Of a stretch of 64,000 nucleotides of DNA, positions 17,221 to 60,500 are shown in pieces. The stretch's first letter is position 1. Each line of letters begins with the position of its first letter. Location: the NCBI RefSeq assembly GCF_963676685.1, contig NC_092353.1, positions 20,243,307 to 20,307,306 of the forward strand, written 5' to 3'. The stretch comes from Mytilus edulis (lineage: Eukaryota). Made by a program: the position numbers and the translations under genes. The notes beneath the pieces were generated by a model. That model did no database searches, was not told the DNA's origin, and saw only the letters and a program-made list of their open reading frames with translations.

Positions 17221-17294
17221 TTAAATGTCCAATCGAATCATACAAATACATACTGATCCATGCCTCTTTTTTTGTGCTTTTCAATATTTTTTAC

Positions 17295-29602: not shown

Positions 29603-29934
29603 CTTAAATAATAAATTCATAGAGGCTCATAAACTTTCCTTTGAGCACCTTTAATGCATGAAATTATAAAATTGAGGTTGTGAGTTTTGAAATCCTGCTC
29701 GTATTGGTACACTTGACTCCAATCTTGACTAGGATTGTTTTTTTTTCCGAACGAAGGTTAGTGGTTTTCACTGGGCACACCATTAAAAACTGGCCGCTAT
29801 AAAGTGGAGTTAAACACCAACAATGAATCAATCAACTACATACAATAAGAACCAATCTTACCAAGTATGAGAAATTTTATAAAATGGTCTCATAGTAGTT
29901 GCATTCACAGGGTGTTATTGTCATAAGCTTCAAC

Positions 29935-31590
29935 CAGATGCTCCGCAGGACGTAGCTTTATACGACCGCAGAGGTTGAACCCTGAACGGTTGGGGCAAGT
30001 ATGGACACAACATTCAAGCTGGATTCAGCTCTAAATTTGGATTGTGATTAAATAGTTGACACAGCATAGGTTTCTGACACAGAATGAATGTGTTCTAATG
30101 AAGTTAAAATTTTTGTTTTCTCATAGAGCAATTCACTATGCTGTTGAATATTAATCCTCTCAAAAAAATGTTTGAAGAAATTTTCTTTTTTATTTATGAA
30201 ATTTCAAATGAGAAAAATTGAACCCAATTTTTTTAATCACATCCCCCTTTCCCTTATTCCAAAACTAATCTCAATTAAAATTTCTAATGGAGTTTGCAAC
30301 AATAACTACTCATTTAAATACATCATAAAATATTAAGATGTAAAAAAACTGCTTGTTATCACTGAATGGTAAAGATTATTTTAATTTATCAGTTGGTTGT
30401 AAAAAGTGAATATACATTGTATATTGTATATAACAAAGATTTAAGTTGATTCTGGACAAAGAAAGATAACTCCAATTAAAAAAAAATCTTGCTATTGCAC
30501 AATATTTTGCAATTAGATATTTCTTGCTTACTATTCTGGACAAAGAAAGATAACTCTAATTAAAAAAAAATTTGCTATTTCACAATATTGTGCAATTAGA
30601 TATTTCTTGCCATTGCACAATACTGTGCAATTGAAAAGACTTGCTATTGCACAATACTTAATATAATAATTTTAGATCCTGATTTGGACCAACTTGAAAA
30701 CTGGGCCCATAATAAAAAATCTAAGTACATTTTTGGATTCAGCATATCAAAGAACCCCAAGATTTCAATTTTTGTTAAAATCAGACTAAGTTTAATTTTG
30801 GACCCTTTGGACTTTAGTGTAGACCAATTTGAAAACATCACCAAAAATGAAGAATCTACATACACAGTTAGATTTGGTATATCAAAGAACCCCATTTATT
30901 CAATTTTTGATGAAATCAAACAAAGTTTAATTTTGGACCCCGATTTGGACCAACTTGAAAACTGGGCCAATAATCAAGAATCTAAGTACATTTTTAGATT
31001 CAGCATATCAAAGAACCTAACTGATTCATTTTTTGTCAAAATCAAACTAAGTTTAATTTTGGACCCTTTGGACCTTAATGTAGACCAATTTGAAAACGGG
31101 ACCAAAAGTTAAGAATCTACATACACAGTCATGACAGTTAGATTCGGCATATCAAAGAACCCCAATTATTCAATTTTAATGAAATCAAACAAAGTTTAAT
31201 TTTGGACCCTTTGGGCCCCTTATTCTGTTGGGACCAAAACTCCCAAAATCAATACCAACCTTCCTTTTATGGTCATAAACCTTGTGTTTAAATTTCATAG
31301 ATTTCTATTTACTTATACTAACGTTATGGTGCGAAAACCAAGAAAAATGCTTATTTGGGTCCCTTTTTGGCCCCTAATTCCTAAACTGTTGGGACCTAAA
31401 CTCCCAAAATCAATACCAACCTTCCTTTTGTGGTCATAAACCTTGTGTTAAAATTTCATAGATTTCCATTCACTTTTACTAAAGTTAGAGTGCGAAAACT
31501 AAAAGTATTCGGACGACGACGACGACAACGCAGACGACGACGCCAACGTGATAGCAATATACGACGAAAATTTTTTCAAATTTTGCGGTC
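29935..31590. mobile_element. Family A composite element (head 29935-30100; 40-bp minisatellite 30480-30660; ~100-bp repeats 30660-31230; (GACGAC)n plus hairpin tail TATACGACG…GCGGTCGTATAAAAAA at 31500-31590)
   Basis: Head and tail alignment with the other copies. The ORF at 30684..31112 is an artefact of repeat translation. Confidence 0.6.
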
Positions 31591-41618: not shown

Positions 41619-42859
41619 CTAACAATATAAAATAACAAAACTATGATAAAAGACAACATCCAGAATTTTTGCAAGGAAATGCTTTTTGGCAACTAACAGT
41701 GGCGTCTTCAGGATAATTTAATTTGCAGTTGTCTTTTTATAGGTTTATTTTCACAAGGGTTTTAAGACAACATCAGTATCCACCTTGGACTCAACTATAC
41801 CAGCTTGTACCGTTTGATGGTGATGGTCCACTTGATGTATAATATAAAATAATGTAAGAGAAATATATAATATGTTTGTAAAGTACCAGTAGAGACAAGG
41901 TTAGTGAGGTATTTTTGTGACACCTAATTATAAAATGTTGTTGTAGTACTAGATCTATTGTGTCTAATTTTCTCAAAGATATCTTATCCATTCCTATACC
42001 TGCACCATGTGAAGTTTAACTAGATTAGAGGCTGACAAAATTGTATTTTCTTTGCCTAGGAAACTAGCTAGTTGAAATTAAACCAATCCATCTGGAAAGA
42101 CAATTAATAAACAGCTGCACCATGAGCACATGATACGCCCTTCGTCTTGTTAGTGAAGTTTTATGCAATAATCATAATTAGTTTCTGAGATACAGCGTGA
42201 CATATGAAAAAAAACATTTTTTTTTACAAAAAACTTAATAAAGCAAAAATAAATTTTGAATCATCACCAAAAAGTATACAGATCTTAAGATTAATATAAC
42301 TAAGAAGTGTGTAAAGTTTTAAGCAATAATCATTAATCATTTTTGAGATTTTGAGTTAAAATCCTATTTTCACCAAAAAGTATACAGATCGTTTGACTAT
42401 CATGAGAAACAACTATGTTAAGTTTCATGAAATTTGGATAAGGGGTTCTCAAGTTACGGTGCGACATGTGGATGCTGGACAGACAGACGGACACCGGACA
42501 TTTGTATACCATAATACGTCCTGTCAAAATTTTGACAGGCGTATAAAAATGAATGGAGAGTATGTTCATGTAACACAGATGATGCCCCCATTTGCATATA
42601 ATATTATGAAGGGATATAACTCAAGAATGGTAAATGTGACATCACCCAAATTTCTAATTTGATCAGTGTTTTGTGGTAATACACACAGTGAATAAGTTTC
42701 ATAACATTTGATTGAGTCAAACTAAAGTTGGAGAAAGGAAACAAATGTCTGGAAGTACATGCCCTTATGTACCTATGTATGGACACAGGGACAATGGTTA
42801 AAATTAATGCCCCTTCGAGTGATGGTGAGGGCATTAAAAACATTTATTATAGTAACAGT

Positions 42860-43100
42860 TCTTGTGATAATCATACCTTTGAGGCCAAGTCCATAAGCTG
42901 AGCTCTGATATCGACTTATTTACATGTTAATCATACCTTTGAGGCCAAGTCCATAAGCTGAGCTCTGATATCGACTTATTTACATGTTAATCATACCTTT
43001 GAGGCCAAGTCCATAAGCTGAGCTCTGATATGGACTGATTTACATAATCATACCTTTGAAGCTAAGTCCATAAGCTGAGCTCTGATATGGACTGATTTAA
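42860..43100. repeat. 60-bp ×4 tandem repeat duplicating the last 33 nt plus donor site (AAG|gtatgatta) of PARP4 exon 12
   Basis: Unit ACATGTAAATAAGTCGATATCAGAGCTCAGCTTATGGACTTGGCCTCAAAGgtatgatta. The first copy is contiguous with the exon. Confidence 0.8.
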
Positions 43101-43187
43101 GAACACATGATTCTCCTGAGGTAGATACCAATCCTGGCTCTACTTTGGCCATGGGATTCTTTATTTCAGAAACATCTTTTAAATCAA
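43054..43187 (-). CDS. PARP4: PARP4 exon 12 (IDLKDVSEIKNPMAKVEPGLVSTSGESCVLKSVHIRAQLMDLASK). The donor region is tandemly duplicated; see the repeat at 42860-43100.
   Basis: ESCVLKSVHIRAQLMDLASK ~ PARP4 NLVPLEDVHIKGRIIDTVAQ. Acceptor atatttcag|TTGATT, phase 1. Donor AAG|gtatga. 134 nt in phase. Confidence 0.6.
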
Positions 43188-43199
43188 CTGAAATATATG

Positions 43200-44827
43200 T
43201 ATATGTTAGCGGCAATAAGTGAAATTAGGCATTAAGCTTAAATCCTAGGCAATAAGCTAACGCCTAGGCAGTAAGTCTATTGCCTAAATGATGTTAGGCA
43301 TTAGTCCTAAATCCTAGGATTTAAGCTTAAATCCTGAAAAATATGTGCAGGCATTAAGCTTAATGCCTAAAACATAAATGCGAGTAAATAAAAGTCATTT
43401 ATTCATTTAAATAACAATATAATGGTAAAATAATAACATTATGAGAACTGGGGCCTGTTTATCGAAACTGTCCTAAGATCGATCCTATAAGATATTCCTA
43501 GGACAGAAATTATGATAAAATTAGGACCGACTTACGACATGTCTCAGCATGCACATTGAAGGTATCTGAGGATTATCTTAGCTAGGATGTCCTAACCGCG
43601 TATTGACGTAACAAAATAGCAAATGAAAAAAATTATTATTGTATCAAATTTAACCAACCACTTTAATTTAAAAACCGACTAATTATTAGAAAATAAATAT
43701 TAGTTTTAAATTATAATAATTTTTACATTGTAAACTATATGAAACAAAACATAAGTAAAAATATAACTAGAGTGGGGTGCTCATTTTCACCATATCTTTC
43801 CATGTTTTCTTCAGTTTAAGTTCAGGTCTTTATGTTTTTGAAGTATACTGCTATTTCTATATGAAGATAATTTCAAATGCAAACGGGGGACACATATTCG
43901 CCGTTGTTACACATCTATTTAAAATAACTTCAGCTTTAAATAATATTTATCAAATAAATTTCATTATAGATGAATAGCAGACATTTGAAAGGTGTAAAAA
44001 ACGAAATTTAGGGCAATCAGTCAAAGAATTACTAAAGAAATACTTCTTTGAAATCGTTTTTTGCATTCAGGAAATTGGCCGAAATTCATGCTATGAGGGA
44101 GCTGAAATGGAAGTGTCACAACACTCCACAAGAGACTGGAAATAAAATCACTAATAAGATATGTTATCTATATTAAAATAATAATCTAAAAATATGAAAA
44201 CCTGATAAATATTTGTGTTCACATAATTTTGTTATCACAAGTTGTGAAACTGTTAATAAAGAAAACTTACTTATCCTATAAAAAAAAATGAAAAATGGTG
44301 TGAGCAAAAAATTCACATTTTAATTTTGTCTACTTTTGACCAGTTTAAATCAGCTCGACTATAGTGAAGTGAAATTTTTTTCAAATAAATATTAAAATTA
44401 TTTTATAGAATCTCCCCCTTGTTTAATTGGATTATAACAATCACTTTTTAATTTTTTTTTAATATTTTGTAATATCACAAAAACATGAAAAAAGTATGTG
44501 TAAATTCTGTTTTTTAACTGCTAAAATTACTAAATAAACTTACTAAATTTGAAGATCTGTCAAATGAATGTATATTTACACATGTTATATAAGAAATAAA
44601 TTAAGTAACTCCTTTATATCAAGAATAAATCACCAAATATGCATTAATTCCAGATTTCACTTATTGCCTAAAATTATGTTCGGCAATAGGACGAATAATC
44701 ATCATAAGATTTCAGGTAATAAGCTTAATGCCTGAAAATTTCAGGCAATAACTTAATGCCTAGGCGTTAGCTTATTGCCTAGGATTTAAGCTTAATGCCT
44801 AATTTCACTTATTGCCACTAACATATA
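43200..44827. mobile_element. Non-autonomous TIR DNA transposon (~1.6 kb) with ~70-bp near-perfect TIRs TATATGTTAG(C/T)GGCAATAAGTGAAATTAGGCATTAAGCTTAAATCCTAGGCAATAAGCTAACGCCTAGGC. Lies in PARP4 intron. TA flanks are compatible with Tc1/mariner but ambiguous.
   Basis: Reverse-complement identity of 43200-43270 with 44757-44827. No transposase ORF. Confidence 0.6.
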
Positions 44828-45317
44828 TAAATATTAGCCAAGGAAACAACTTTTAGGAAATACCTGAAATATATATAATTTATTGTATGAAAAATGTTTT
44901 TGCAACTGATAATATCAAGTGCACATGCCAACTATGAAGATATTTATCAAAAGATCCAATAAGTTGACATGGTTGCAATAGTTATCATATTTGAAAAAAT
45001 TAAAAATATACTGTGAATTATTAACAATATATTTTTTGAATCATAATTATGTTAGTCTGTAAGAAAACAGTTAAAGCCTGTTACAATCCTCAAAAGCAAT
45101 TTACAAGATGATTATTGTTTCAAATTATTGTTCATTGTTGAATGCTGTACAGTGATCTATAGATTTTGTGCCATTAACTTCTATGTTATTTGGTCACTGA
45201 TGGAGAGTTGTCTCATTGGCTATCAATTTTATAAATAGTACTGTGTTAAATTATGGCCTGGTAATTTGATATCCTGTATTTTATTTGAATGTATTAAAAT
45301 TATTTGGACTGATTTAC

Positions 45318-45462
45318 TTTTATCTTCTACTTCTGAGTCTTCCTCTATTTCGTCTGACAATTCTCCTATACTCAATGTCTTCTTATTATCTCCCTTGACA
45401 GAGAACTCTACCAAGTACTGTGTCATCTGTTGGTCAGTGTTGTAAATTACAAACTCATTATC
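45318..45462 (-). CDS. PARP4: PARP4 exon 11 (DNEFVIYNTDQQMTQYLVEFSVKGDNKKTLSIGELSDEIEEDSEVEDK)
   Basis: Matches PARP4 DDEFVVYKTNQVKMKYIIKFSMPGDQIKDF. Acceptor aacacag|GATAATGAG. Donor AAAA|gtaaatc, phase 1. Confidence 0.75.
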
Positions 45463-45732
45463 CTGTGTTTGAAGACAAATTATTTATTGTACAGCTAATA
45501 AAGAATTGATTCTAAATAGAAAAAAATTATGTATTACATGCTTAACACTCATTGGACATTGTATTTTCTATTTTAGAATTAGTTAGCAGAAAACTGGATT
45601 GACCGCAAAGAATTACTTTCCTTGCTTAGATTGTTAATAAGTCTTAAATGGTAAATTATTTATGTTCTGAAAAGAAAGGAAAGTTTTTTGGAATGTCTGA
45701 GTATATTGTGATGCTAAAAATCAAATAAAACC

Positions 45733-47805
45733 AGATGCTCCGCAGGGCGCAGCTTTATATGACCGCAGAGGTCGAACCCTGAACAGTTGGGGCTAGTATG
45801 GACACAACATTCAAGCTGGATAAATACACTGTTAGATTCGGTATATCAAAGAACCCCAATAGTTCAATTTTTGGTGAAATCAAACAATGTTTAATTTGTA
45901 CCCTTTTGACCCCTAATTCCTAAACTGTTGGGACCAAAACTCCAAAATCAATCCCAACCTTCCTTTTGTGGTCATAAACCTTGTGTTAAAATTTCTATTT
46001 ACTTATACTAAAGTTATTGTGCAATCAAAGAGCTGAAGAGCTCTGAGGGAAAAGACGGCCATTGTTTCAATTTTTAGGGGGGTATCTTTTAATAGTCTAC
46101 ATACAAAGAATGAGCAAAAGAACAGCTAGAACATATAGAAAGGCTGACAATAATGAAACTAATTGTTGTTTATTGTTATTTCATTTCCTTAGTCAAGAAT
46201 TCATCATAGAGACAATTTGGACCAATGAGATCTGCACCTTCTAAATCAAAACATTTAATTAAAGTTGGGAGTTAATTATCTAAAATTAAATTGAATTTAA
46301 CAACTACTACAATATACTTTAGAATTTTAATTATGTACAACTGAATGGCAGGCTAAGACCATTCTCAATTTTTTGTGACAGTATTCTCAAGAAAGTGAGG
46401 ACTGAAAAATCTATTCAGTTTTAATTTGCCATTGATAAATTTCCCAGTTACAACTCTCATCACAGGGCTACATGTACTTATAAAATCAAATATGATTGAT
46501 ATAAGCTGTGTGAAGTTTGTTTACAGATCCCACATTTTGATATATCTGTAAAATTCATGAATAAATAGCTTTAAAAGCAATATTTAAAAAAAAAAAAAAA
46601 AAAAATGACCACTACAATAATTATGTTGGTACGCAAAATTCTTTTTTTATTGATGACTACTTATCATATATACTTAATGTGACATTTTTAGTGTTCAGAT
46701 ACATTAACTTTCATTTTAGTGGGTAATTACTCATCAATTGAGGTGCCCCTTAATTGGAGAAAGATTCTAAAAACATAACTTTTCAGAAAGAATGAAAACT
46801 GCAGTTGCTCTCCCCAATCTCAATAGGAATATACTACAAAAAGCAAAATTTTTTTTTTTTTTTAACCATTTCAATAATTATGTTGGTACACAAAATTTTT
46901 TTTATATAGAAGACTACTTATCATATACTAAATGTCAAATTTTAAGTGTTCAGAAACATTTACTTTGATTTTAGAATATAATTACTCATCAATTGAGGTG
47001 CTCCTGAATTGGAGGAAGATTCTAAAAACAAAACTTTACAGAAACAATGAAAACTGCCGTTTCTCTCCCCTATCTCATGTATCCCCATTGACATTGTTTA
47101 CCGCGAAAGTTGACCTACAAATTATCTGATTATAGCCTCAGATTAAAGCATTGCATGTTGGTGTGTGAATCATCTACACTACAGCAAACATCATTAGGTT
47201 TACATTTAACAAATACGGATTTTAAATTAGTATACAAATACTGTGAATGATTTTTATAATGAATAAAGGATATCCCTGTGTAGGTCGGCATTCCAACAAT
47301 GACGTCACTAGGTTAGATATATTTAGAATATTTCGTAATACTGATTTTTCCGGACTGTAAAAGAAACGTATATAGTGTAAGGGAAAGCTCAATATACGAT
47401 AATTTCACGAGATACAGAAGGGAAATGTGTAAAAATTTTATTTAAAGTCAATCTGTTTTTCATCAATTTCAGTATGACATTTTGAGGGGGTTTCCTAACT
47501 ATCAAAACAAAATGATTGACGTGAGGGAATGATACTCTGGCCAACCCCATTAGGGAATTGACGGCTTGAAGCCGTCTTTCCCCAAAAACCAAGAAAAATG
47601 CTTATTTGGAACCTTTTTTGGCCCCTAATTCCTAAACTGTTTGGACCAAAACTCCCAAAATCAATACCAACCTTCCTTTTATGGTCATAAACCTTGCATT
47701 TAAATTTCATAGATTTCTATTCACTTATACTATAGTTATAGTGCTAAAACCAAATGTCTTCGGACGACGACGAAATATACGACAAAAAAATTTGGTCGTA
47801 TTAAA
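45733..47805. mobile_element. Family A composite element (head 45733-45830, tail 47575-47805) with nested insertion of family B repeat (46026-47575). Lies in PARP4 intron.
   Basis: Head CCAGATGCTCCGCAGGGCGCAGCTTTATATGACCGCAGAGGTCGAACC. Tail cttcggacgacgacgaaatatacgacaaaaaaatttggtcgtatt. The internal 1.5 kb matches 14838-16130. Confidence 0.55.
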
Positions 47806-47887
47806 GAAACACCCAAAACTTCAGATTGTTGTTTTTAATTTCATCCCAACACAAAAGTCACATTTGCCTCAGATTATATACATGTAC

Positions 47888-48071
47888 CTTGAATTCTGAA
47901 GGTTGATCTTCTGATGAAGCTACACCATGACAGCTTTCATAACCCTCTGGAGGCCCCTGTAGGTCTTTTTGGTATTCAGTGAAATCTTTACAGTTGCCAA
48001 GGGCAACATTACTGACTAGCATCATTCTGGTACCCTTACATTTACTTTGGTCTGAGTACTGTATACTAGTA
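47888..48071 (-). CDS. PARP4: PARP4 exon 10, catalytic core (STSIQYSDQSKCKGTRMMLVSNVALGNCKDFTEYQKDLQGPPEGYESCHGVASSEDQPSEFK)
   Basis: Matches PARP4 LSTSIKYSHPGETDGTRLLLICDVALGKCMDLHEKDFSLTEAPPGYDSVHGVSQT. Acceptor tattacag|TACTAG. Donor TTCAAG|gtacatg. Confidence 0.85.
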
Positions 48072-48497
48072 CTGTAATATAAATATACCAGGTGTTGTTA
48101 ATTATGTATTTTGACATTACCCCTTGTTTGGCCCCAAATTATACAATTAGCACTTTGCACTTTGGAAAAATAAAAGTAAGTTGCATTTTAAACATTTATG
48201 TTTCCATCTCTAAGTAAATTGATTCAAGGATTTTCATAAATGTGAATAATGGGACTTGATCGCAATAATAAGAAATCCCATTTTCTGATATTGGATACTT
48301 ATGTATATCTTTATGAAGATTAAGTTGAAATCGCAATAACCAGTCTTACATTTTGGTTAGATCTTCAAAAATGACAATTATAAATGCATGCAATAATTTC
48401 TGAACTTCCAGTATTTATATTCACATGTATCTTACCTTCTGTGAATAGATGTTATGAAAATTGGATGAATGTTACAAACAGAATCACATTTACATAC

Positions 48498-48596
48498 CTA
48501 GCAGAACTGGCAAAGTAGATTCCATTTCCCAGCATTCCTGCATCTGTTCTGGTTCCACCAAAATCATCAACTACAACTTTAGGCAGCATTAAACCT
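48498..48596 (-). CDS. PARP4: PARP4 exon 9, PARP catalytic core (RGLMLPKVVVDDFGGTRTDAGMLGNGIYFASSA)
   Basis: Near-identical to PARP4 RGLLLPKVVEDRGVQRTDVGNLGSGIYFSDS. Acceptor ttgcag|AGGTTTAATG. Donor GCTAG|gtatgtaaat. Confidence 0.85.
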
Positions 48597-48999
48597 CTGC
48601 AACAAATATTTACATTTGAAGCGGATATATGTTGTAAAGCTCTTAGCATAATTTTAATATTATGTAATGAGCTGTTATAAATACTGTATAATAATGATAA
48701 TAAAAGTAAAAGTTTCTTTCTGTATTTCAAAGTACAGGTTTAATGAGAAATTGGTTTCTCCTTTTTATATTTGTTAACATTTTGTTATCTTATCTAACAT
48801 TATGTCTTTTTCTGTAACTACTGTGGAATAATTATCAATTGTGTGAAATATCAATTTTTATGGATTTCGTTGGTTTAGATAAACTACAATTTCAAATGTT
48901 CAATGAAAGTTAAATTCCTATTATGCAGACTTTACCAAAGCCACAAAATTAACAATTAGCAAAAATACAATTGGTCCTCAATCCATAAAAATTTGTTGA

Positions 49000-49690
49000 G
49001 TAATTGAGTATTGAGGTTGAGTAATATTGAGGTTGAGTAATTAAGTATTGAGGTTGAGTAATTGAGTATTGAGGTTGAGTAATTGAGTATTGAGGCTGAG
49101 TAATTGAGTATTGAGGCTGAGTAATTGAGTATTGAGGTTGAGTAATTGAGTATTGAGTTTGAGTAATATTGAGGTTGAGTAATTGAGTATTGAGGTTGAG
49201 TAATTAAGTATTGAGGCTGAGTAATTGAGTATTGAGGTTGAGTAATATTGAGGTTGAGTAATTGAGTATTGAGGTTGAGTAATTGAGTATTGAGGTTGAG
49301 TAATATTGAGGTTGAGTAATTGAGTATTGAGGTTGAGTAATTGAGTATTGAGGCTGAGTAATTGAGTATTGAAGTGGAGTAATTGAGTATTGAAGTGGAG
49401 TAATTGAGTATTGAAGTTGAGTAATTGAGTATTGAGGTTGAGTAATTGAGTATTGAGGTTGAGTAATTGAGTATTGAGGTTGAGTAATTGAGTATTGAGG
49501 TTGAGTAATATTGAGGTTGAGTAATTGAGTATTGAGGCTGAGTAATTGAGTATTGAGGTTGAGTAATTGAGTATTGAGGTTGAGTAATTGAGTATTGAGG
49601 CTGAGTAATTGAGTATTGAGGTTGAGTAATTGAGTATTGAGGCTGAGTAATTGAGTATTGAGGCTGAGTAATTGAGTATTGAGGCATATT
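49000..49690. repeat. 21-bp minisatellite (GAGTAATTGAGTATTGAGGTT)n, ~33 copies with 16-bp variants, in PARP4 intron
   Basis: Direct inspection. The ORFs 48956..49687 and 49204..49710 are artefacts of this array. Confidence 0.9.
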
Positions 49691-50077
49691 ATGTTATGTG
49701 TTCTACTCATTATATATAATTAACACGAAAATATCATCTAAGTGGTGAATATTCATGAGCTGGTTTTTTTTTAAATTGTTGCCTTCATGCATATCAAAAA
49801 CTTCTTTTATGTACTGTTGTCTATGGAAAGTAGTCCGAATTTAGTGTAATCTACATTTTCACGAAGCTAGTACACATTTGTGATAAGAGTACAGCAAAAG
49901 TCCCCTTTAGTTGCAAGAATTTCTAAACTTGCGGTGTTGAAGACCCATTGGTGGCCTTGGGCTGTTTTCTGCTCTTTGTTTGGGTTGTTGTCTCTTTGAC
50001 TAATTCCCCATTTACATTCTCAATTTTATTACATGCCTTTAAGAAAAACGCAAATTGATATTCTATTCTATTCTTAC

Positions 50078-50215
50078 CTAGATAATATTCCAACAAAGTT
50101 CTGAACTTTTGATGCATGAAACAACAACTTCTGAGGTCTCAAATCTTTTCTAAAATTGTCTTCTTCAACTTGTCGATGAACAGAAAATATATTTTCTACT
50201 ATAATCTGGTCATTT
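50078..50215 (-). CDS. PARP4: PARP4 exon 8 (NDQIIVENIFSVHRQVEEDNFRKDLRPQKLLFHASKVQNFVGILSR)
   Basis: Matches PARP4 VDVLQIFRVGRVNETTEFLSKLGNVRPLLHGSPVQNIVGILCRG. Acceptor ttttcag|AAATGACC. Donor TCTAG|gtaagaa. Confidence 0.75.
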
Positions 50216-50613
50216 CTGAAAATAATGTGGTTGTTAGTACATTGTACTACAAAATAAAAAGATGTATATTGTTTTCAAAAAATAATACTTTATCCAGTAG
50301 TACTAGTGCATGTAAGAAATAATGCAACTGTTTAAATTGTTAATGGTTTTATTATCTCCTCATTTACTTTTAAAATATGTCAATTTATATTTTATATAGT
50401 TGTCCTTAAGTGAAAAAGCCCTTAGCTAATATACATGTATCTGTATGCAGCTTTTTTCAGAAATTGCCATAATTAATCTCAAATCATGTTGAAATTACAA
50501 AAATAAACACATGAAGTAATTTCTGAATTTCAAGTTACTAATTCAATAAATTTTACATCTGAATAACTGAATCACAAATCATTCTGAGTAGTTATGTCCA
50601 GTATAATACAAAC

Positions 50614-50774
50614 TGTTTGAGAGACTGTATAATGTGTTCCTTGATCTGTTTATATTCTGTATCTGTAATCTCTAAACCATCAAGTCTACATCGTAATGCT
50701 TTATACTTGGCCTCGGTACTACTTCTGGTTGACCAGTTTGTAGACTCACTCACAGCTACCATATCTTTAATCAT
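50614..50774 (-). CDS. PARP4: PARP4 exon 7 (MIKDMVAVSESTNWSTRSSTEAKYKALRCRLDGLEITDTEYKQIKEHIIQSLKQ)
   Basis: Matches PARP4 LIRDMVNVCETNLSKPNPPSLAKYRALRCKIEHVEQNTEEFLRVRKEVLQNHH. Acceptor tatttcag|ATGATT. Weak donor CA|gtttgt, phase 2. Confidence 0.65.
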
Positions 50775-51177
50775 CTGAAATATGACAAATTAATTTAGAG
50801 TCAAGGCTAGCTATATGTTCAGAAGTTGAAATTTACATAGTCCTACCTTAGCAGTGAAAAATTTATCAGATTTACACCTACTTTTTTATATGACCGAATG
50901 AAAAAAATAAAGATATTTACTAGTCAGTTATCTGAAACATCTCAATTGCTTGATATCCCAATGCTGCTTTGACATATGTTAAATTATAGAGTGAAAAGTG
51001 TAAATCTTAAAACAAGTAATATGCAATAATATGGAATGTGCTTTGTGTGGCTATTTAACAACTATCCACAAGAGACCAAAGGACGAGAATGTAAACAACT
51101 AAAGTAAAATAAAATTAGAAAGGGTTACGCGAAACCAGTGTCTTGCCTACTTTTGCTGTTAGTCACAGGCACAACAA

Positions 51178-53850
51178 ACTAGAGGCTCTAAAGAGTCTGT
51201 GTCGCTCACCTTGGTCTATGTGAATATTAAACAAAGGAAGCAGATGGATTCATGACAAAATTGTGTTTTGGTGATTGTGATGTGTTTGTACATCTTACTT
51301 TACTGAACATTCTTGCTGCTTACAATTATCTCTATCTATAATCAACTTGGCCCAGTAGTTTCAGTGGAAAATGTTAGTTAAAATTTACAATTTTTATGAA
51401 AATTGTTAAAAATTGACTATAAAGGACAATAACTCCTTAGGGGTCAATTGACCATTTCCGTCATGTTGACTTATTTGTAAATCTTACTTTGCTTAACATT
51501 ATTGATGTTTACAGTTTATCTCTATCTATAATAATATTCAAGATAATAACCAAAAACAGCAAAATTTCCTTAAAATTACAAATTCAGGGGCAGCAACCCA
51601 ACAACGGGTGGTCAGATTCATCTGAAAATTTCAGGGCAGATGGATGTTGACCTGATAAACAATTTTACTTATGTCAGATTTGCTCTAAAGGCTGCGGTTT
51701 CAGAGTTATAAGCCAAAATCTACATTTCACTCCTATGTTCTATTTTTAGCCATGGTGGCCATCTTGGTTGGTTGGCCGGGTCACCGGACACCAATTTTTT
51801 AAACTAGATACCCCAATGATGATTGTGGCCAAGTTTGGTTTAATTTGGCCCAGTAGTTTCAGAGGAGAAGATTTTTGTAAAAGATAACTAAGATTTATGA
51901 AAAAATGGTTAAAAATTGACTATAAAGGGCAATAACTCCTAAAGGGATCAACAGACCTATTTGTAGATCTTACTTTGCTGAACATTTTTGCTGTTTACAG
52001 TTTATCTCTATCTATAATAATATTCAAGATAATAACCAAAAACAGCAAAATTTCCTTAAAATTACCAATTCAGGAGCAGCAACCTATCAATGGGTTGTCC
52101 AATTCATCTCAAAATTTCAGGGCAGATAGATCTTGACCTGATAAACAATTTTACCTCGATGTCAGATTTGCTCTAAATGCTTTGGTTTTTGAGTGATAAG
52201 CCAAAAACTGCATTTTACCCCTATGTTCTATTTCTAGCCATGGCGTCCATCTTGGTTGGTTGGCCGGGTCACAGGACACAATTTTTTAACTAGATACCCC
52301 AATGATGATTGGGCATAGGACATTTGAGCGAAAAAGAAAAAAGCACATAGGGTCATTTGAGCGCCGACTTCATAGGACATTTGAGCGCCGGGATATTAAC
52401 CTTACCTGAGTTTTCAGACAGGACATTTGAGCGAAATTTTCCCTGATAATTTTACACGAATTAAGATTTTTTTTTAAAAGTAAGAAAAAAAAGTAAGATT
52501 TAGTTATAAATATTTTTTATTTTATTTCACACCCGAGTAATTCGACCGGTTCTGGCTGGTTTATGTAAGTGAAATCCTAAGTTGATCTCTATTTACCAAT
52601 CAATTCTACTATAATTCATTGGCTATGCAAATTTTCTTTGTTCTAAAATTCTTATATATATATCTATTAAGTGAAATGTCCCTTGGCACTTGAAATCTTA
52701 ATACTAATAATACATGTACGTGTTAAAATGGATATTATTTTGACCGAGACTAATAAGGGAAAAAGAAGCCTTGTTTGTGACAGTTTCCGATATAGAGTGG
52801 ACAAAACACTAAAAGGAGAAGAAATATCCTGGAGATGTACAGTAAGTACCTTTTTTTACAAATTTAATGTTAATGTAAACTACTTGTTCGTCTGTTACGC
52901 TTCAACTTCCATAACTTCTTTTAATTTTGATTTATATCTATATCATTATATGTCTATCTTATACCTCCTTTAGATTAATTTTTTAACACATTTGAATATA
53001 AGCTACCACATATAGGGTTAGGTATCAAGGCTCCATGTTGAAGGTCGTACTGTAACCTATATAACATTGTTAGGTTGATTTTCTAGGCACTTTACAATAT
53101 TCATACAATACACTGTAAAAATTGTGCTTAAATGTCCTAAAATTTAGGCGCTCAAATGTCCTATACTTTGGCGCTCAAACGTCCTTTTTTTTTCGCTCAA
53201 ATGTCCTGTCAATGCGCTCAAATGTCCATTGCCGTGATGATTGTGGCCAAGTTTGGTTTAATTTGGCCCAGTAGTTTCAGAGGAGAAGATTTTTGTAAAA
53301 GATTACTAAGATTTACGAAAAATGGTTAAAAATTGACTATAAAGGGCAATAACTACTAAAGGGGTCAACAGACCATTTTGGTCCTGTTGACTTATTTGTA
53401 GATCTTACTTTACTGAACATTTTTGCTGTTACAGGTTATCTCTATCTATGATAATATTCAAGATAATAACCAAAAACAGCAAAATTTCCTTAAAATTACC
53501 AATTCAGGGGCAGCAACCTATCAACAGGTTGTCCGATTCATCTCAAAAATATAGGGCAGATAGATCTTGACCTGATTAACAATTTTACCCCATCTCAGAT
53601 TTACTCTAAATGCTTTGGTTTTTGAGTTATAAGCCAAAAACTGCATTTTACCCCTATGTTCTATTTTTAGCCATGGCGGCCATCTTGGTTGGTTGGCCGG
53701 GTCACCGGACACAATTTTTAAATTAGATACCCTAATAATGATTTTGGCCATGTTTAGTTAAATTTGGCCCAGCAGTTTCAGAGGAAAAGATTTTTGTAAA
53801 AGTTAACGACGACGGACGCCAAGTGATGAGAAAAGCTCACTTGGCCCTTC
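51178..53850. repeat. Family C satellite-carrying element, copy 4 (interrupted by MULE-like insertion 52313-53234). Terminal hairpin truncated.
   Basis: Same head (ACTAGAGGCTCTAAAGAGTCTGTGTCGCTCACC) and 3' GACGRC tract; hairpin partially degraded (gctcacttggcccttcgggcag). Confidence 0.75.
52313..53234. mobile_element. Mutator-like (MULE-type) non-autonomous TIR element. 9-bp TSD TGATGATTG, ~19-bp TIRs (GGCATAGGACATTTGAGCG / CGCTCAAATGTCCATTGCC), subterminal direct repeats of CATAGGACATTTGAGCGCCG. Carries a FLYWCH-type zinc-finger exon fragment (52740-52849, …ILTETNKGKRSLVCDSFRYRVDKTLKGEEISWRCT|gtaagt).
   Basis: Inserted into one unit of the 480-bp satellite. The target site tgatgattg appears intact on both flanks. 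Internal ORF shows the FLYWCH pattern (F/L..T.KGK..LV.DG/S.F.Y…K…..ISWRC) followed by a canonical gtaagt donor. Confidence 0.65.
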
Positions 53851-54326
53851 GGGCAGTTATTAAAATTTTAAAAACTTTAACCACAGCGTGAATATTTATG
53901 ATCACCGACAAAAATGATCTAAACCAAAACCATATTGTAAGCTATAGAAGAAAATGTCATAAAACAATAATGTGTCCATTGTACACTGATGCCCCACTCA
54001 CACTATCATTTTCTAAGTTCAGTGGACCTCGAAATTGGGGTAAAAACTCTAATTTGGCATTACAATTAGAAAAATCATATCATAGGGAACATGTGTACTA
54101 AGTTTCAAGTTGATAGGAATTCAACTTCATCAAAAACTACCTTGACCAAAAACTTTAACCTGAAGTTAACCTAAAGTAGGATAGACGGATGGACTGATGG
54201 ACAGACAGACCCACAGACCAAAAAACATAATGCCCCTAGGTGGGTCCGAAAAAAAATTGAAACAATTAAAAATAGCTACCTACCAATCCTTTTTTTATAG
54301 AAATTACTTTAAAGACAGTGTTTCTT

Positions 54327-54600
54327 TTATATTTATATTAACCAGTCAAATGAGACCATTACCTGACATATATCTTGTTTTAGAGAAAGCCAGGCTCTAA
54401 GTTATGTGTCTGATGGTTTTATATTTATATTAACCAGTCAAATGAGACCATTACCTGACATATATCTTGTTTTAGAGAAAGCCAGGCTCTAAGTTATGTG
54501 TCTGATGGTTTTATATTTATATTAACCAGTCACATGAGACCATTACCTGACATATATCTTGTTTTTGAGAAAGCCAGGCTCTAAGTTCTGTGTCTGATGG
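54327..54600. repeat. 93-bp ×3 tandem repeat duplicating the 3' end plus donor (TGTCAG|gtaatgg) of PARP4 exon 6
   Basis: Copies at 54541-54600 (real exon end), 54449-54513 and 54356-54420. Downstream copies carry an in-frame TAA. Confidence 0.8.
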
Positions 54601-54714
54601 TGTATGTTTTCTCCTATGAGGCAAACAACTGTAGAATTCATCGACTAGACCGGTTCTCTGTTGGTTGTCACTGCAATTTTTACATTTTAATAAAACAGCT
54701 TCTGCTTTCTCTAT
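54547..54714 (-). CDS. PARP4: PARP4 exon 6, helical/regulatory region (IEKAEAVLLKCKNCSDNQQRTGLVDEFYSCLPHRRKHTPSDTELRAWLSQKQDICQ)
   Basis: Matches PARP4 VSKAEGILLLVKAALKNGETAEQLQKMMTEFYRLIPHKGTMPKEVNLGLLAKKADLCQ. Acceptor ttttag|ATAGAG. Donor TGTCAG|gtaatgg. 168 nt in phase. Confidence 0.7.
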
Positions 54715-55282
54715 CTAAAATGGTAACAAAAACATGATTATTTTTTAATTTATTCATAAAATACATAGGGTTGTTGTTTCTTTGGCACATTCCCCATTTC
54801 CATTCTCAATTTTATATAGTATGAACAAATAAAATACAGAATGAAATGAAAAGTGTTGAATGGAAAATTTTAGCAGTTAAAGCAGTTGAATCCTTTTAAA
54901 ATTACATTTACACTGTGATAAGTTGAATGAAAAGGATAATATGACATTTTAGGAGATCTTGAACACTTTAATTTACAGAAATTGAGCAGTGAATAAATCT
55001 GCTTCAGTGTGTGAATTTATATTATTCATTTGATGGATCTGACATAATGATGGTTTAAATGAACCATTTTTTGTACATACATTAGGTCATTAGTTTTCTC
55101 GTTTGAATTGTTTTACATTTGTCATTTCAGGGCCTTTTTTAGCTGACTATACGGTGTGGGATTTTCTCATTGTTCAAGGCCAAACAGTAACCTATAGTTG
55201 TTAATTTCTGTGTCATTTAGTCACATGTGAGGAGTTGTCTTATTGGCATGCATACCACATCTTTTTTTATATATCTACTTAC

Positions 55283-55420
55283 CTGTTCTAGTTTGAGGCT
55301 CTGTAAGGGTGAACTGATAACTTCTTCTATTTCACCTGTAGCCTCTTTCCAGATATGTTCCATCAACTCTACGACAGAGGGAGATAAGGGACTAGTATCC
55401 ATTCCATATTCTTCTACCAT
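55283..55420 (-). CDS. PARP4: PARP4 exon 5 (MVEEYGMDTSPLSPSVVELMEHIWKEATGEIEEVISSPLQSLKLEQ)
   Basis: Matches PARP4 LSQEVSDLVEMIWAEALGHLEHMLLKPVNRISLND. Acceptor ttgtag|ATGGTAG. Donor GAACAG|gtaagt. Confidence 0.65.
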
Positions 55421-55939
55421 CTACAATTTTTGTTTACATTTAATGAAATCACACTTAGTTATCATGTCAAACTTTAAGTGTGCACCTTTAAAATCTTCCA
55501 TGAAATTCTTGGATATAAAAGGCATAAAATGAATAAAAAAAATTAATACTAATCTCAACTAAAATGAAACAGACTTAAAATAACTAAATCAGTAGATTTG
55601 TACATTCCCAAAGCAAATTGGGAAAAAGATATAAATAAATTAATTTACCTGAAACACAAAAATAACATTGGAAAGGCCATACTTCTAAAAACTCAATGCA
55701 TATGATTTAAGCTCTTCATTTATTAAGCATCATCCACAGATTTCAACGATTCTTCACACACATATTACTGTGTGAACATGCATCACTCTCTTTAGACTTA
55801 TCAAATTCTTATGGTCCTTCTCAAGAACTAATAGTTTAACCTCTTTGCATTTATGTACAAAATTACTTCAAATTTTACCTAATTACATGGTTTGACCATT
55901 AACTAATGATAAAATTATCTGTTTAACAAAATGATGTAC

Positions 55940-56092
55940 CTTTTGAAATTTTCTAGATCCAATATTTCTCATCAAAGGCTGATAAATAACATTCATAATA
56001 TGTGGAGGTCTTGACTGTTCATTATACAGATAAGCATATACATGGAGTGTGTCATCTGATGTGATGACATAGCGATATTCAACAACACTTTC
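55940..56092 (-). CDS. PARP4: PARP4 exon 4 (ESVVEYRYVITSDDTLHVYAYLYNEQSRPPHIMNVIYQPLMRNIGSRKFQK)
   Basis: Acceptor atttccag|GAAAGTG. Donor CAAAAG|gtacat. 153 nt in phase. Positional correspondence to PARP4 region after FEVAKYN. Confidence 0.55.
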
Positions 56093-58012
56093 CTGGAAAT
56101 AAATTTTTTTATTATAAGGTACAGTACTTTTTTTGCAACATTGATTAAAAGCTAAATAATAACATGCATAGAGTCATAATACCAATGTCTTTCTAGAGAG
56201 ATATGCTTTGTTATGCTTATAAAAATAAGAAGGTGTGGTATGATTGCCAATGAGACAACTCTCCACAAGAGAACAAATAAACAGAAAATAGCGAATTTGG
56301 TAACCACATAACTTACAACAATGAGTAAGTCCCATATTCCATAGTAAGCCTTTGTATGAGAATTCAGATTTTCTATACCGTTATATTAAACCAAAATACA
56401 ACATATGATGAGTAGGAATGCAGACTTTTAGCTTGACAGGGTGAGAAAAAGTCGTTCAATCACATTCTGTATGCCTGAATATAAGGCAATAAAAATCATG
56501 TTTGACAAGAAGCTAGTCCATAAACATTTTTACATGAAATCAAATGCCATGTCATATTAAAAGTGTTATAGTGAAAATTGTGTCTTGTTATGCCAGTAGT
56601 GAGTGCTGATACATGTAGGAGATGAAGACTAATCTCTCAGGATGATAAACTGAAATAAGGTACATAAAGCATGCCAATTTTATTGATATTTATGTCTGTC
56701 TTTAAAATGTTTACTTCATCTGTTGAATAAGTAATTAATTAATTTTCTGTCCAAATTCTTTCTAAAAAAATTATTACAGATTGTTTTAAAATGATTAATT
56801 TGTCCTAGTCCGAGACATTTCTAAAGACTCCAAAATCTCTTTCTTAAGGTGGTACCCAACACTTTCACTAAAATTAATTTGGCTCGTTTAATTTTCATAA
56901 AATTATGACAAAGTATTTACTTTGACCTTTTAACAAAAATTTAAAAATTTAAAAAGTTTTGAACCAACCATTTTATCAGAAAAATTACACTGGTTATATA
57001 GCAGTTTGACAGACACCAATTTTGATCATTGAGAAGCTTAATATTCCCTTTACAACACAACATAATTAAAACATTTGGCTGACTTTACAGAGTTATCTCC
57101 CTGTAGTGTTAGGTACCACCTTAAACTAGATTTAGCACAACCAAGTTGTATAAGTAAAAATTCATTCTTACTGGTGTTGTGATTCATTTTGAAACAGATG
57201 AGTGCTGTTGATTATACAAGAAGTGTATGATAACCTTCTGTGCAGCATTACCTTTAAGTTCTGTGTAGAACCATAGTGTGAATAGACCCTGAATCTATAA
57301 CAGTCTGATCTGTTCAAATCTACAGGCTCAGCTACATGTATCTCCAAATTATAAAACATTGTGGCTTCTCTTAATTTATCATATTTCTGAAATATATAAT
57401 TTTCAAAGAACCTTCATGTTACTTTTGATTATAAAACCATAAAGATTTTTATATGTACATGTTACTGTATCATAATCTTTCTGAAATAAGAAAAGCATAT
57501 TCTTTTTTCTTTTCTTTGAAATGATCACTCTAACTACAATGTATAATAACAATGAATCGTTCATGTCTATCAAAAAGTCAAATCTAAAAAATACTGAACT
57601 CCAAGGAAAATTTAAAACAGAAAGTCCCTTATAATCAAATGGCAAAATCAAAAGCTCAAACACATCAAATGAATGGATAGCAACTGTCATAATCATAAAT
57701 TGAAAAGAATGTTATGAAATATTCTATAATTCTTAAATGATTTTTAAAATCTCTTCCATCTTATCAGTAATTGACACTTAAAAAGAGATTGAAAAAAACA
57801 GGGTAAGGAAAAGGAAACTTTAAAAAAATAAACGCATAACAGTGATAACACCACTTATTTTGTAAAAAAAAAAAGCAGCATCAGAAAACAATTGAAAATA
57901 CCAAAAAATGAAATCCCCTTAAAATTGAAATACATCTTTCAGCACTCAATGCAAACATTAGGTATCATGTATAAATAAAACAAATTGTGATCGTTGATAA
58001 AAAATATATTAC

Positions 58013-58155
58013 CTGAAACATAGCAAATTTGGCAACTTCATATTTCACCTCATTGTAATCAGGTGAATTTTTATTACCAGGATGCCACACTTTAACACCT
58101 TTGGGATCAATTTTGATTTTCTTCTTCGTGACATCTTTTTTTTGATACTTGGTTG
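58013..58155 (-). CDS. PARP4: PARP4 exon 3 (STKYQKKDVTKKKIKIDPKGVKVWHPGNKNSPDYNEVKYEVAKFAMFQ)
   Basis: YEVAKF ~ PARP4 FEVAKYN. Acceptor tattgtag|CAACC. Donor TTTCAG|gtaatat. Phase 1 to 0. Confidence 0.6.
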
Positions 58156-59232
58156 CTACAATATTATAAAGTAACAGGGGACATGTAAACAAATTAATTT
58201 ATCAAACTGGACATACATATTACAACACTTATCTCCCCTTGAACCAAATTGTCTGCAAAATAAATTATAATGTAAAATTTAGTGCCCTTTTTATCAGATA
58301 CTGCTACATTCCTCTAGATATATAACCATACAATTCTTCCTATAATATCTGGAAACTTTAAACCTATGACAATGGAGATAAAACTTAATGGAGTCATTGA
58401 AGTATAAAATCTAGTCATTTATTTTCATGGAATCTGCTTTATTCTATAAGATGCGATTGTAGATAAAGTATTAAATGTATCTTCTTGATGTATTCTTTTA
58501 TAAAGGTACACGTTTTATTGTCACAAAAAGTGATAAAAAATATGCCAACCTAAGTTGAAAAGTAATAAGTAAAGGGAAATACCTAAAAAAGATTCTTTTT
58601 AAAAAAAATTGATCCAATTTAAAAATAAATAAATTGGGAATGTGTACATGGGACACAGATGATGCCCCCACTTGTATATCATATAAAGGGACATAACTGA
58701 AGAATGGCAAAAGTGATGTTTCCCAAATTTGTTATTGACATGAGTTTTGTAGTAATACATTTTGTGTATAAGTGTCATTACATTTGGTGGAGGCAAACTT
58801 AAGCTAGAGAACAGAAACGAAAAATTCAGCAATTTTTTGCCATTTGTAAAGAGGCATAACTCTAGAACTGTAAAAGTGACACCACCAAAATTCAGACTTG
58901 ATCTGTATTTTGTGGTAATAAGCATTGTGTATACGTTTTATACTATTTGGTTGAGGAAAACTAAAGTTAGAGAATGGAAATAAAAATTCAGCAATTATTC
59001 CATTTGTAAAGGGGCATAACTTTAGAACTGTTAAAGTGACACCACAAAAATTCAAACTTGATCTGTATTTGATAGTAACAAGCTTTGCGTATAAGTTTCA
59101 TAATGTTTGGTTGAGGCAAACTAAAGTTAGAGAATGGAAACCAACTTTGGGACCTACGGACAGACTGACATACAGACAGACAAGGGTAAAACTTAATGCC
59201 CCCTCCACTATGACAGGGGCATAAATTCTTAC

Positions 59233-59431
59233 ATAGTATTTTGCCACTGCTGAATTCTTGTGACTTTGTTTTTCCAACAAGGATGTAATTATCTGTATTG
59301 AGTAGTCTCCCCTGGTCTACACAGTCATGGATATAATCAAGTGACACCACTGGTAATCCATACTGTGTGGCCATCTTACATTTGTAACTGATATCTGCCT
59401 TTTCTGGGTCATTACATACAACATGTGTACT
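59233..59431 (-). CDS. PARP4: PARP4 exon 2: C-terminal half of BRCT (STHVVCNDPEKADISYKCKMATQYGLPVVSLDYIHDCVDQGRLLNTDNYILVGKTKSQEFSSGKIL)
   Basis: BRCT consensus (TH.V…G.P.V…W…C…LL.E..Y). Matches PARP4 CTHIILDNADVLSQYQLNSIQKNHVHIANPDFIWKSIREKRLLDVKNYDP. Acceptor tttatttacag|AGTACA. Donor ACTAT|gtaaga, phase 1. Confidence 0.75.
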
Positions 59432-60210
59432 CTGTAAATAAACCAGAAACATATAATAAACTAGACAACAAAGATGATAATGAGCCTTTGGGTAACCATT
59501 AGGGAGGTTTTGAAATTTGTGTGAAATGTTCAGGCTCTTTTGGTGTTTTTCCATACAAACAAGGTAAAACATTTTGCCCCATAACACCTATTTATCTTTT
59601 AACATAATTAGACTTAATTGCTCATAACAAGGTCAATCATTTGACAAAATTTAAGCAGATTCTGGATTTTCTTTCTTTTGATTTGAGACCTAAATAATAC
59701 CAATGCAAATATAATGTAAAAGTCAAAGTCAGCCTTTTTCCGTCATATTTCATAAGTCAAATATCACGAAAAAAGAGCTACATGACCTATCAATATGTTT
59801 TAGCTTATTTTGATCCTGAACTAATACTCTTCCAGCTTAAAGTATCAATTTTAAATTCTTGATTTATTTAATTTTACCTTATTAATTAGATTACCTAAGT
59901 ATATCCTTAACACATTATTCTTACTCGGAGTAGACCAGTCCTTGCTCTTGCTTTTTAAAGCGGTTGCATCACAGAAAAGCAGCAAATACCCAAAAATACC
60001 CTTCTGGCTTTCAAACCCACAATGGGGAATGTGTCAAAGAGACAACAGCCCTACCATAGAACAGACAACAGCAGAAGGTTACCATTAGGTCTTCAATGCA
60101 GCGAGAAATTCTCTTTCCTGGAGGCGTCCATCAGCAAACAAATATTTATACTAGTACAGTGGTAATGGATGTCAGTCTTCATTCAAAATTTATTATTGCA
60201 TTGTACATAC

Positions 60211-60348
60211 CTTCTTGGTGACAATGTAAGAAATAATTCCTCCATTTTCAGTGATCTTTTTTCTGATTTCTGTCTTTTTCTTAAAGTTGACACTGGTAGT
60301 CAAGTCCAGGACTATCTGACAATCACTAAATATAGACATCTTAGACAT
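60211..60348 (-). CDS. PARP4: PARP4 (vault PARP) coding exon 1: ATG plus N-terminal half of BRCT domain (MSKMSIFSDCQIVLDLTTSVNFKKKTEIRKKITENGGIISYIVTKK)
   Basis: Resembles human PARP4 N-terminus (MxxGIFANCIF…QQKKKLQTDIKENGGKFSFSL). ATG at 60346-60348 immediately follows an acceptor-like ttttcag, so a 5'UTR exon lies upstream. Donor AAGAAG|gtatgtac. Confidence 0.75.
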
Positions 60349-60349
60349 C

Positions 60350-60500
60350 TTATAACTGAAAACAGAAATATATCATTACTATTTTATTTTCTATCTGAAA
60401 ACAGAAATATATCATTACTATTTTATTTTCTATCTGAAAACAGAAATATATCATTACTATTTTATTTTCTATCTGAAAACAGAAATATATCATTACTATA
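60350..60500. repeat. 39-bp ×4 tandem repeat immediately 5' of the PARP4 start codon. Each unit, read on the minus strand, ends in a polypyrimidine tract plus AG (…ATATTTCTGTTTTCAG).
   Basis: Unit CTGAAAACAGAAATATATCATTACTATTTTATTTTCTAT (plus strand). The last copy abuts TTATAAG-ATG of exon 1. Followed by a (TA)n microsatellite at 60540-60580. Confidence 0.8.

Follow-up and report, generated by a model that had tools for sequence, protein, structure and literature searches.

Minisatellites reiterating splice signals in a Mytilus PARP4 homologue are young, allele-specific repeats

Introduction

Why should a single gene carry three tandem arrays, each of which reiterates a splice signal? The question is raised by a 64,000-nucleotide stretch of the Mytilus edulis genome (NCBI RefSeq assembly GCF_963676685.1, contig NC_092353.1, positions 20,243,307 to 20,307,306 of the forward strand), hereafter referred to as the window. 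The window is AT-rich eukaryotic DNA (G+C content approximately 31%), and its minus strand carries a PARP4-like Mytilus gene, visible as a long run of short open exons. A sequence-only reading of the window had described three minisatellites as tandem copies of splice junctions of this gene, and had suggested that three in one gene call for a special local mechanism or a regulatory use. We conclude that the arrays are young, allele-specific minisatellites, or variable numbers of tandem repeats (VNTRs), and that the many minisatellites and closely spaced exons of the gene mostly account for their number, a reading to which we assign a probability of approximately 0.7.

Results

Gene identification and loci compared

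A rough concatenate of the minus-strand exons matched PARP4-like Mytilus proteins in a database search, and a protein-guided spliced model yielded an N-terminal part of 1137 residues that is fully open. Over these residues, the proteins of M. trossulus, M. galloprovincialis and M. edulis share 95-96.5% identity with the window protein. A Pfam scan of the spliced protein identified BRCT (residues 3-84), PARP (397-573), VIT (630-742) and VWA (867-1017) domains. The BRCT-PARP-VIT-VWA order is that of PARP4, and the top database matches are named PARP4-like; the gene is a PARP4 homologue, as had been proposed.

Six orthologous or allelic Mytilus loci were compared with the window, namely one from M. 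trossulus (L001), three from M. galloprovincialis (L002, L004 and L006) and two from M. edulis (L003 and L005). The comparison is thus one between related Mytilus taxa, each represented by assemblies, and does not sample a population; the L006 locus stops just upstream of exon 13. Over 19-21 kb, the window shares approximately 93.5% nucleotide identity with loci of M. galloprovincialis and M. edulis and 88% with that of M. trossulus, which places its source in or near the edulis complex.

Organization of the arrays

Arrays were located in the window with Tandem Repeats Finder (TRF) and delimited on the sequence, and junctions were fixed by protein-guided splicing. All arrays and exons described in this section lie on the minus strand. 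The existence of three independent tandem arrays reiterating splice signals was borne out: their units are unrelated to one another and, as revealed by BLAST of each unit, occur nowhere else in the window.

Array 1 (60356..60499) consists of a 39-bp unit repeated 3.7 times with a 100% match. Four copies of tttctgttttcag end at 60473, 60434, 60395 and 60356, the copy ending being ...atgatatatttctgttttcag. The last AG, at 60357-60356, lies 7 nt before the ATG at 60348, with which coding exon 1 begins (60348..60211; MSKMSIFSDC...TKK, containing the start of the BRCT domain; donor AAGAAG/gtatgt). This exon was mapped by tblastn with proteins P0001/P0116 and by the spliced model. The last AG is the putative acceptor of the first coding exon. 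The motif occurs at the same place in six haplotypes, and L002 keeps a pyrimidine tract and CAG at the site, though the sequence upstream is unrelated there. The sequence-only reading was right about the 39-bp units and their polypyrimidine-AG endings, but array 1 contains no exon sequence.

In contrast, arrays 2 and 3 contain authentic exon-intron junctions. Array 2 (54325..54601) consists of a 92-bp unit repeated 3.0 times with a 98% match, each unit running from the terminal 54 nt of coding exon 7 across the GT donor into 38 nt of intron. Exon 7 (54714..54547; IEKAEAV...SQKQDICQ, phase 0) ends in the authentic donor CAG/gtaatg, the G of which is at 54546, and the junction ICQ/MIKDM is continuous in proteins P0001, P0116 and P0118. 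Pseudo-donor Gs are found at 54454 and 54362, and all three donors are identical over at least 24 nt (GATATATGTCAG/gtaatggtctca). Copies 2 and 3 share one sequence, which departs from that of copy 1 at 3 sites, among them a derived GAA>TAA change. Three units carrying a donor had been described correctly, though as 93-bp units including the last ~50 nt of exon 6.

Array 3 (42868..43099) has a 57/60-bp unit repeated 3.9 times (60 bp and 96% match according to TRF), with spacings of 57, 60 and 60 bp. Each unit takes in the final 45 nt of coding exon 13 and continues across the GT donor into 12-15 nt of intron. Exon 13 (43187..43054; DLKDVSEIK...AQLMDLASK, containing the start of the VIT domain) ends in the authentic donor AAG/gtatga, with the G at 43053, and the junction ASK/VVVLQ is continuous in orthologous proteins. 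The pseudo-donor Gs are at 42996, 42936 and 42876, and all four donors read AAG/gtatga. Here too, the four donor-bearing units had been recognized, but the exon had been numbered 12, its share had been set at 33 nt, and the shorter first spacing had been missed. In both arrays, the 9-mers of the authentic donors are identical to those of the pseudo-donors.

Variation among Mytilus haplotypes

In L001, L004 and L005, a lone unit occupies the site to which all copies of a given window array map, and the same holds for array 3 in L002 and L003. For array 2, the single-copy sites are at 15525-15610 in L001, 8865-8957 in L004 and 8067-8158 in L005. Array 1 is the only one to recur, as a 39-bp unit repeated 3.0 times in L006. 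Allelic copy numbers are thus 1, 3.0 or 3.7 for array 1, and 1 elsewhere versus 3.0 and 3.9 in the window for arrays 2 and 3, respectively.

Single-copy loci also polarize the substitutions within the arrays. The ancestral GAA of array 2 is retained in the exon-contiguous copy, and the derived TAA is shared by copies 2 and 3. In array 3, the exon-contiguous copy departs from the ancestral state by two synonymous changes only (TTA GCT in place of the ancestral TTG GCC); derived changes of the non-synonymous type are common to copies 3 and 4. The pattern of substitutions has the marks of recent stepwise duplication, with coding constraint acting on the first copy only.

Conserved pseudo-sites, which would be expected of regulated unproductive splicing, were not found in L001, L004 and L005 at any of the three positions, nor in L002 and L003 at array 3. 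Since the arrays are absent from orthologous haplotypes, no conserved function can be argued for them, and this hypothesis was rejected on the grounds that they are single copy in most of the six loci. The comparison of orthologues, which the sequence-only reading had called for, hence lends no support to a regulatory use. Intron gain by tandem duplication was likewise rejected, because every junction involved is shared by M. trossulus, M. galloprovincialis and M. edulis.

Predicted consequences of pseudo-site use

In donor arrays 2 and 3, the first monomer would provide the real exon end and donor, and the later monomers would be intronic pseudo-copies; in acceptor array 1, the real AG would be found in the last monomer. 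Reading through the sequence, any exon 7 pseudo-donor leads to a stop after 9 extra codons (VMVSCDWLI, then TAA), and any exon 13 pseudo-donor leads to a stop after 1 extra codon (V, then TGA); the in-frame stops noted in the sequence-only reading are therefore real. Transcripts with such premature stops would presumably undergo nonsense-mediated decay (NMD). An upstream acceptor copy of array 1 adds an upstream open reading frame (ORF), MIYFCFQ..., that terminates beside the main ATG, and its use would result in a longer 5' untranslated region (UTR) containing a short upstream ORF.

When the first donors are used, the ORF of 1137 residues, along with its PARP4 domain set, stays intact. Only the exon-proximal site yields an open reading frame, which is why the gene remains functional. 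By analogy with the human F7, LMNB2 and PDGF genes, the spliceosome probably uses the exon-proximal donor at both arrays 2 and 3. In relatives carrying similar arrays, gene models take either the first donor or the last acceptor.

Frequency of boundary-spanning arrays

TRF arrays with a period of at least 12 were listed in the window and in the six Mytilus loci. Arrays with a unit recurring elsewhere (a composite transposon featuring 35-, 135- and 160-bp arrays) were removed, and those shared by descent were merged. As a null model, we calculated for each array the chance that a randomly placed unit of its length in the gene contains a splice junction; junction density in the gene is approximately 1 per 500-800 bp.

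In the window alone, 3 of 12 arrays span a boundary against 0.73 expected (P=0.031), a post hoc value uncorrected for the many windows scanned. Within the range covered by the sequence-only reading, the count is 3 of 5 against 0.37 (P=0.003), which is also post hoc. When transposon-borne arrays are counted, the number of arrays in the window rises to 21 and the expectation to 1.80 (P=0.26). Pooling the seven Mytilus haplotypes gives 9 of 55 non-transposon arrays against 4.38 expected (P=0.024). In this pool, the excess is more pronounced among arrays with a period of at least 29 bp (9 versus 3.4, P=0.003) and among young arrays with a match of at least 96% (7 versus 1.3), and disappears when transposon-borne arrays are included (9 versus 10.7).

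Once arrays found only in the window are set aside, the remaining Mytilus data, which are independent of the discovery, feature 6 boundary-spanning arrays among 48 against 3.98 expected (P=0.20), or 6 among 21 against 3.13 (P=0.076) when the period is at least 29 bp. The PARP4 loci of the scallop Ylistrum balloti (L007) and the abalone Haliotis rubra (L008) served as an outside control. Together they feature 5 such arrays versus 3.1 expected (P=0.19); the expectation was obtained with array-collapsed gene lengths and is an underestimate, as some exons were missed. All discovery-independent data combined give 11 versus 7-8 expected (P=0.10-0.17). The data neither demonstrate nor rule out an up to about two-fold excess at boundaries. 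Excesses this small lend no support to the claim that three arrays in a single gene require a special mechanism or serve regulation. The coincidence in the window is largely a matter of the base rate in a gene that is rich in minisatellites and has many small exons.

Boundary-spanning arrays at other sites

A second array at the exon 7 donor was found in the M. galloprovincialis locus L006 (UYJE01007902.1), where a 100-bp unit is repeated approximately 39 times at 17205-21091, headed by the donor itself. The unit comprises ~86 nt of exon and ~14 nt of intron, in contrast to 54 and 38 nt in array 2. The breakpoints of the two arrays differ, and the L006 array therefore arose in an independent event. 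Within L006, the exon-contiguous copy bears variants typical of the array (PLDIE, not PSDTE or PSDIE), which hints at a conversion from the array into exon 7. The annotated gene is split at this array, a 230-residue "gene" is called inside it, and protein P0115 ends in donor read-through.

Four arrays were found at other boundaries in M. trossulus L001. These are a 191-bp unit repeated 3.1 times at the exon 2 acceptor (7750-8318), a 143-bp unit repeated 3.1 times at the exon 15 donor (29357-29794), a 68-bp unit repeated 2.7 times at a later donor (42623-42803), and an 82-bp unit repeated 37 times with a 96% match at an acceptor (45101-48135). In M. galloprovincialis L004, an 80-bp unit repeated 2.0 times (12448-12607) comprises the exon 11 acceptor and 68 nt of exon, and its upstream pseudo-copy has gained a TAA. 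At 69847-69997 of the same locus, a 53-bp unit repeated 2.8 times reiterates the last 33 nt of the coding sequence and the stop codon in the 3'UTR.

Similar arrays are found in the control loci. The scallop gene features a 51-bp unit repeated 17 times (17 nt of exon, the donor and 34 nt of intron) and a 33-bp unit repeated 28 times (the acceptor and 20 nt of exon). In the abalone gene, a 68-bp unit repeated 27.6 times and 70-bp units span donors, and a 30-bp array ends at an acceptor. Minisatellites, with periods of 27-111 and up to 68 copies, make up 37% of the scallop and 45% of the abalone PARP4 gene. In both species, one flank of the gene is much poorer in arrays (3.6% and 5.7%), while the other side is at 71% and 21%, respectively.

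Exon sequence outweighs intron sequence in 11 of 12 boundary-spanning units (mean 0.68; P=0.006). This value becomes 0.057 once two arrays that merely abut an acceptor are placed on the opposite side.

Discussion

Minisatellites that reiterate splice sites have known counterparts in human genes. The VNTR in intron 7 of F7 is made of 37-bp monomers repeated 5-9 times, the first of which spans the exon 7-intron 7 boundary (Borensztajn et al., PMC1557585). Every pseudo-donor is functional, yet the most upstream site alone is selected (PMC1557585). First monomers also span the exon-intron boundary in LMNB2 (100 bp, 10-15 copies), in intron 4 of PDGF (81 bp, 16-18 copies), in IFI6 (6-16; 25 pseudo-sites) and in intron 13 of CBS (15-20 repeats) (PMC1557585). 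Splicing is confined to the upstream-most donor in LMNB2 and PDGF, while IFI6 and CBS also employ the two nearest pseudo-sites (PMC1557585).

Arrays 2 and 3 resemble the F7 array in that the first monomer holds the authentic donor and is followed by identical intronic pseudo-sites, copy number is polymorphic, and the open reading frame requires the upstream-most site. They differ from it in the exon part of the monomer, which is 4 nt long in F7 and 54 and 45 nt long in the mussel donor arrays, and in number, as F7 has a single array and the mussel allele has two donor arrays and one acceptor-side array. Moreover, the choice of site has been tested experimentally in F7, while in the mussel arrays it is predicted. 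LMNB2 and PDGF match the mussel arrays in both architecture and unit size, the closest being the 100-bp array of L006 (approximately 39 copies) and the 82-bp array of M. trossulus (37 copies), although LMNB2, PDGF, IFI6 and CBS are human genes whose splicing is documented by transcripts. In IFI6, splicing at pseudo-sites yields in-frame isoforms; every mussel pseudo-donor, in contrast, gives a stop. Structurally, the mussel arrays belong to the class of F7-type minisatellites, being made of 39-, 92- and 60-bp head-to-tail monomers that vary in copy number between alleles, with the authentic junction contained in arrays 2 and 3. Allele-specific minisatellites of this kind have been known in human genes for decades, and the mussel case is an ordinary one.

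A different process is envisaged by models of intron gain or intron sliding, in which an exon segment containing AG/GT is duplicated in tandem; an example has reportedly been described in Drosophila. As in these models, the mussel arrays consist of in-gene duplications that include splice-site sequence, and the extra copies would be spliced out. Unlike in these models, no new intron is made, and the duplicated junctions pre-exist at positions common to orthologues.

Each array would have arisen by local tandem duplication of a unique stretch of 39-92 bp that happened to include a splice signal or, in the case of array 1, to end at one. In molluscs, where PARP4 is packed with minisatellites and has many small exons, some arrays would be expected to fall across junctions. 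Duplications straddling a junction would be tolerated, unlike out-of-frame duplications inside exons. Because of this selection filter, exon-overlapping duplications are seen only when their extra copies fall in introns or UTRs or are in frame. The resulting VNTR alleles are probably neutral or mildly deleterious.

Other origins of the units were tried and rejected. BLAST yields single-copy orthologous matches only, in contrast to the recurrent 35/135/160-bp composite family, and speaks against derivation from a transposon. The idea that a hairpin or palindrome makes the exon 7 donor a hotspot was discarded, as DNA folding of the single-copy region gives z=-0.97 and inverted repeats are short and imperfect. 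Slippage between flanking direct repeats was dismissed for arrays 2 and 3, where microhomology is limited to 0-1 nt and small filler or deleted bases are found. For array 1, slippage is plausible, as ATAGAAAAT and ATAAAAAAT flank the single-copy unit in L001.

Several observations weigh against chance placement of silent repeats. The window count (3 versus 0.73), the count within the range first described (3 versus 0.37) and the count in M. trossulus alone (4 versus 1.06 expected, P=0.013) are all above expectation. A second, independent array at the exon 7 donor is not predicted by chance placement, and pure chance would not lead to exon-rich units in 11 of 12 cases, a skew for which the selection filter does not account. 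In addition, site usage within the arrays is extrapolated from mammals, and some unproductive splicing may occur, given that human IFI6 and CBS make use of the two nearest pseudo-donors.

A rival reading is that exon boundaries, or the exon sequence next to them, are preferred birth sites of tandem duplications. The arrays would still be non-functional VNTRs, but their position would not be due to chance. One may speculate that exons act as homology islands between very divergent haplotypes, so that repair synthesis starts in an exon, falls off in the heterologous intron and re-invades, copying the end of the exon and some adjoining intron bases over and over. Besides the pair of arrays at exon 7, the five more such arrays at other exons in M. 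trossulus and M. galloprovincialis and the five in scallop and abalone fit this hypothesis, as do the pooled Mytilus counts and the dominance of the exon part. However, the strong P values take in the discovery set or post hoc classes. The independent sets stay close to the null (P=0.2 and P=0.19, and P=0.10-0.17 combined), the excess is gone with transposon-borne arrays counted, and the P value of the exon skew reaches 0.06 when the two acceptor-abutting arrays are considered. At the exon 7 donor, moreover, the single-copy sequence has no hairpin potential, and breakpoint microhomology is 1 nt. We regard a preference for boundaries as unlikely, and are equally doubtful of a broader version in which either minisatellite birth is biased to exon sequence near splice sites or PARP4, given its array content in scallop and abalone, is minisatellite-prone across molluscs, with selection retaining only duplications of which the extra copies are spliced out. 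Of the local mechanism suggested by the sequence-only reading, what survives is this weak possibility, favoured by the L006 array and the exon-rich units and opposed by independent counts near the null.

Still less credible is that the arrays are used, the ladders of donors and acceptors diverting a tunable share of transcripts to premature-stop isoforms, and thereby to dosage control coupled to NMD, or to 5'UTR variants with an upstream ORF. Pseudo-donors do match authentic sites over at least 9 nt and each gives an early stop, upstream acceptor copies do add an ORF ending beside the main ATG, and proximal pseudo-donors are active in human IFI6 and CBS (PMC1557585). However, M. trossulus and other haplotypes of M. 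edulis and M. galloprovincialis lack the arrays, haplotypes differ in the exons that bear arrays, copy number at one site spans 1 to approximately 39, nonsense and indel changes accumulate in pseudo-copies, and pseudo-sites are silent in human F7, LMNB2 and PDGF (PMC1557585). A regulatory role is accordingly very improbable. The notion that the arrays stem from misassembly of a highly heterozygous genome is hardly tenable. It could draw on the fact that arrays 2 and 3 are seen in this assembly only and that copies of the L006 array differ by 10-14% indels, resembling unpolished long-read sequence. Nevertheless, the unit of array 1 is found with a different copy number in an independent assembly, and comparable arrays are present in five other assemblies from four species. 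Substitutions are also structured and nested, neighbouring copies being identical in pairs and different from the others.

Young VNTRs placed largely by base rate thus remain the preferred reading, and the natural alleles that they provide, with 1 to approximately 39 identical donors or acceptors, could be used to test in an invertebrate the "first site wins" rule of mammals. The model of UYJE01007902.1, which is cut in two at the exon 7 array, is a warning for annotation. From the weak boundary excess and the exon-rich units, an inexpensive genome-wide test can be framed of whether duplications in hyper-heterozygous genomes are biased towards boundaries. Were biased birth or a minisatellite-prone PARP4 to prove true, a single gene would offer ladders of 3 to approximately 39 identical natural splice sites and would point to a mutational process linked to exon boundaries, perhaps repair in which very divergent haplotypes serve as templates for one another.

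Other features of the locus

The start-codon region of the gene carries a 9-bp in-frame tandem duplication (AAGATGTCT, 2.2 copies according to TRF; 60333..60352, minus strand). Consequently, the protein begins with MSKMSIF instead of MSIF. The duplication is absent from L001, L002, L004, L005 and L006.

The gene extends well beyond the PARP4 core. The M. galloprovincialis RefSeq model XP_076077943.1 (3045 residues) is colinear with the window from 60348 to 436 on the minus strand, up to approximately residue 2294. Downstream of the core, the window encodes calmodulin-like EF-hands (~26822-25608), a Snf7 domain (~25433-24416), a coiled coil, and two repeats of the HSP70 substrate-binding domain (~3635-2216). 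At least some of these parts are joined in four independent gene models, an architecture unusual for PARP4. At M. edulis L003, the downstream gene model has a recorded PF26156 (PARP4_MVP-ID) hit, and the C-terminal region in which such a domain would be expected lies outside the window. Logan members of the protein cluster cover the C-terminal region of the long protein only.

Most long-period, non-local arrays derive from a composite dispersed element with internal 35-bp, ~135-bp and ~160-bp arrays, which is present in several copies in the window (828-1968, 28806-31214 and 58762-59141) and in at most 7 copies per related locus. Two intronic VNTRs also vary among haplotypes. A 61-bp VNTR at 13322-13867 has 9 copies in the window, 41 in L003 and approximately 45 in L004. 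A G-rich 21-bp VNTR at 48995-49684 has 34 copies in the window and 13 in L004, and corresponds in L005 to 8 copies of a 42-bp unit; in the window, this array produces a strong GC-skew peak at 48-50 kb.

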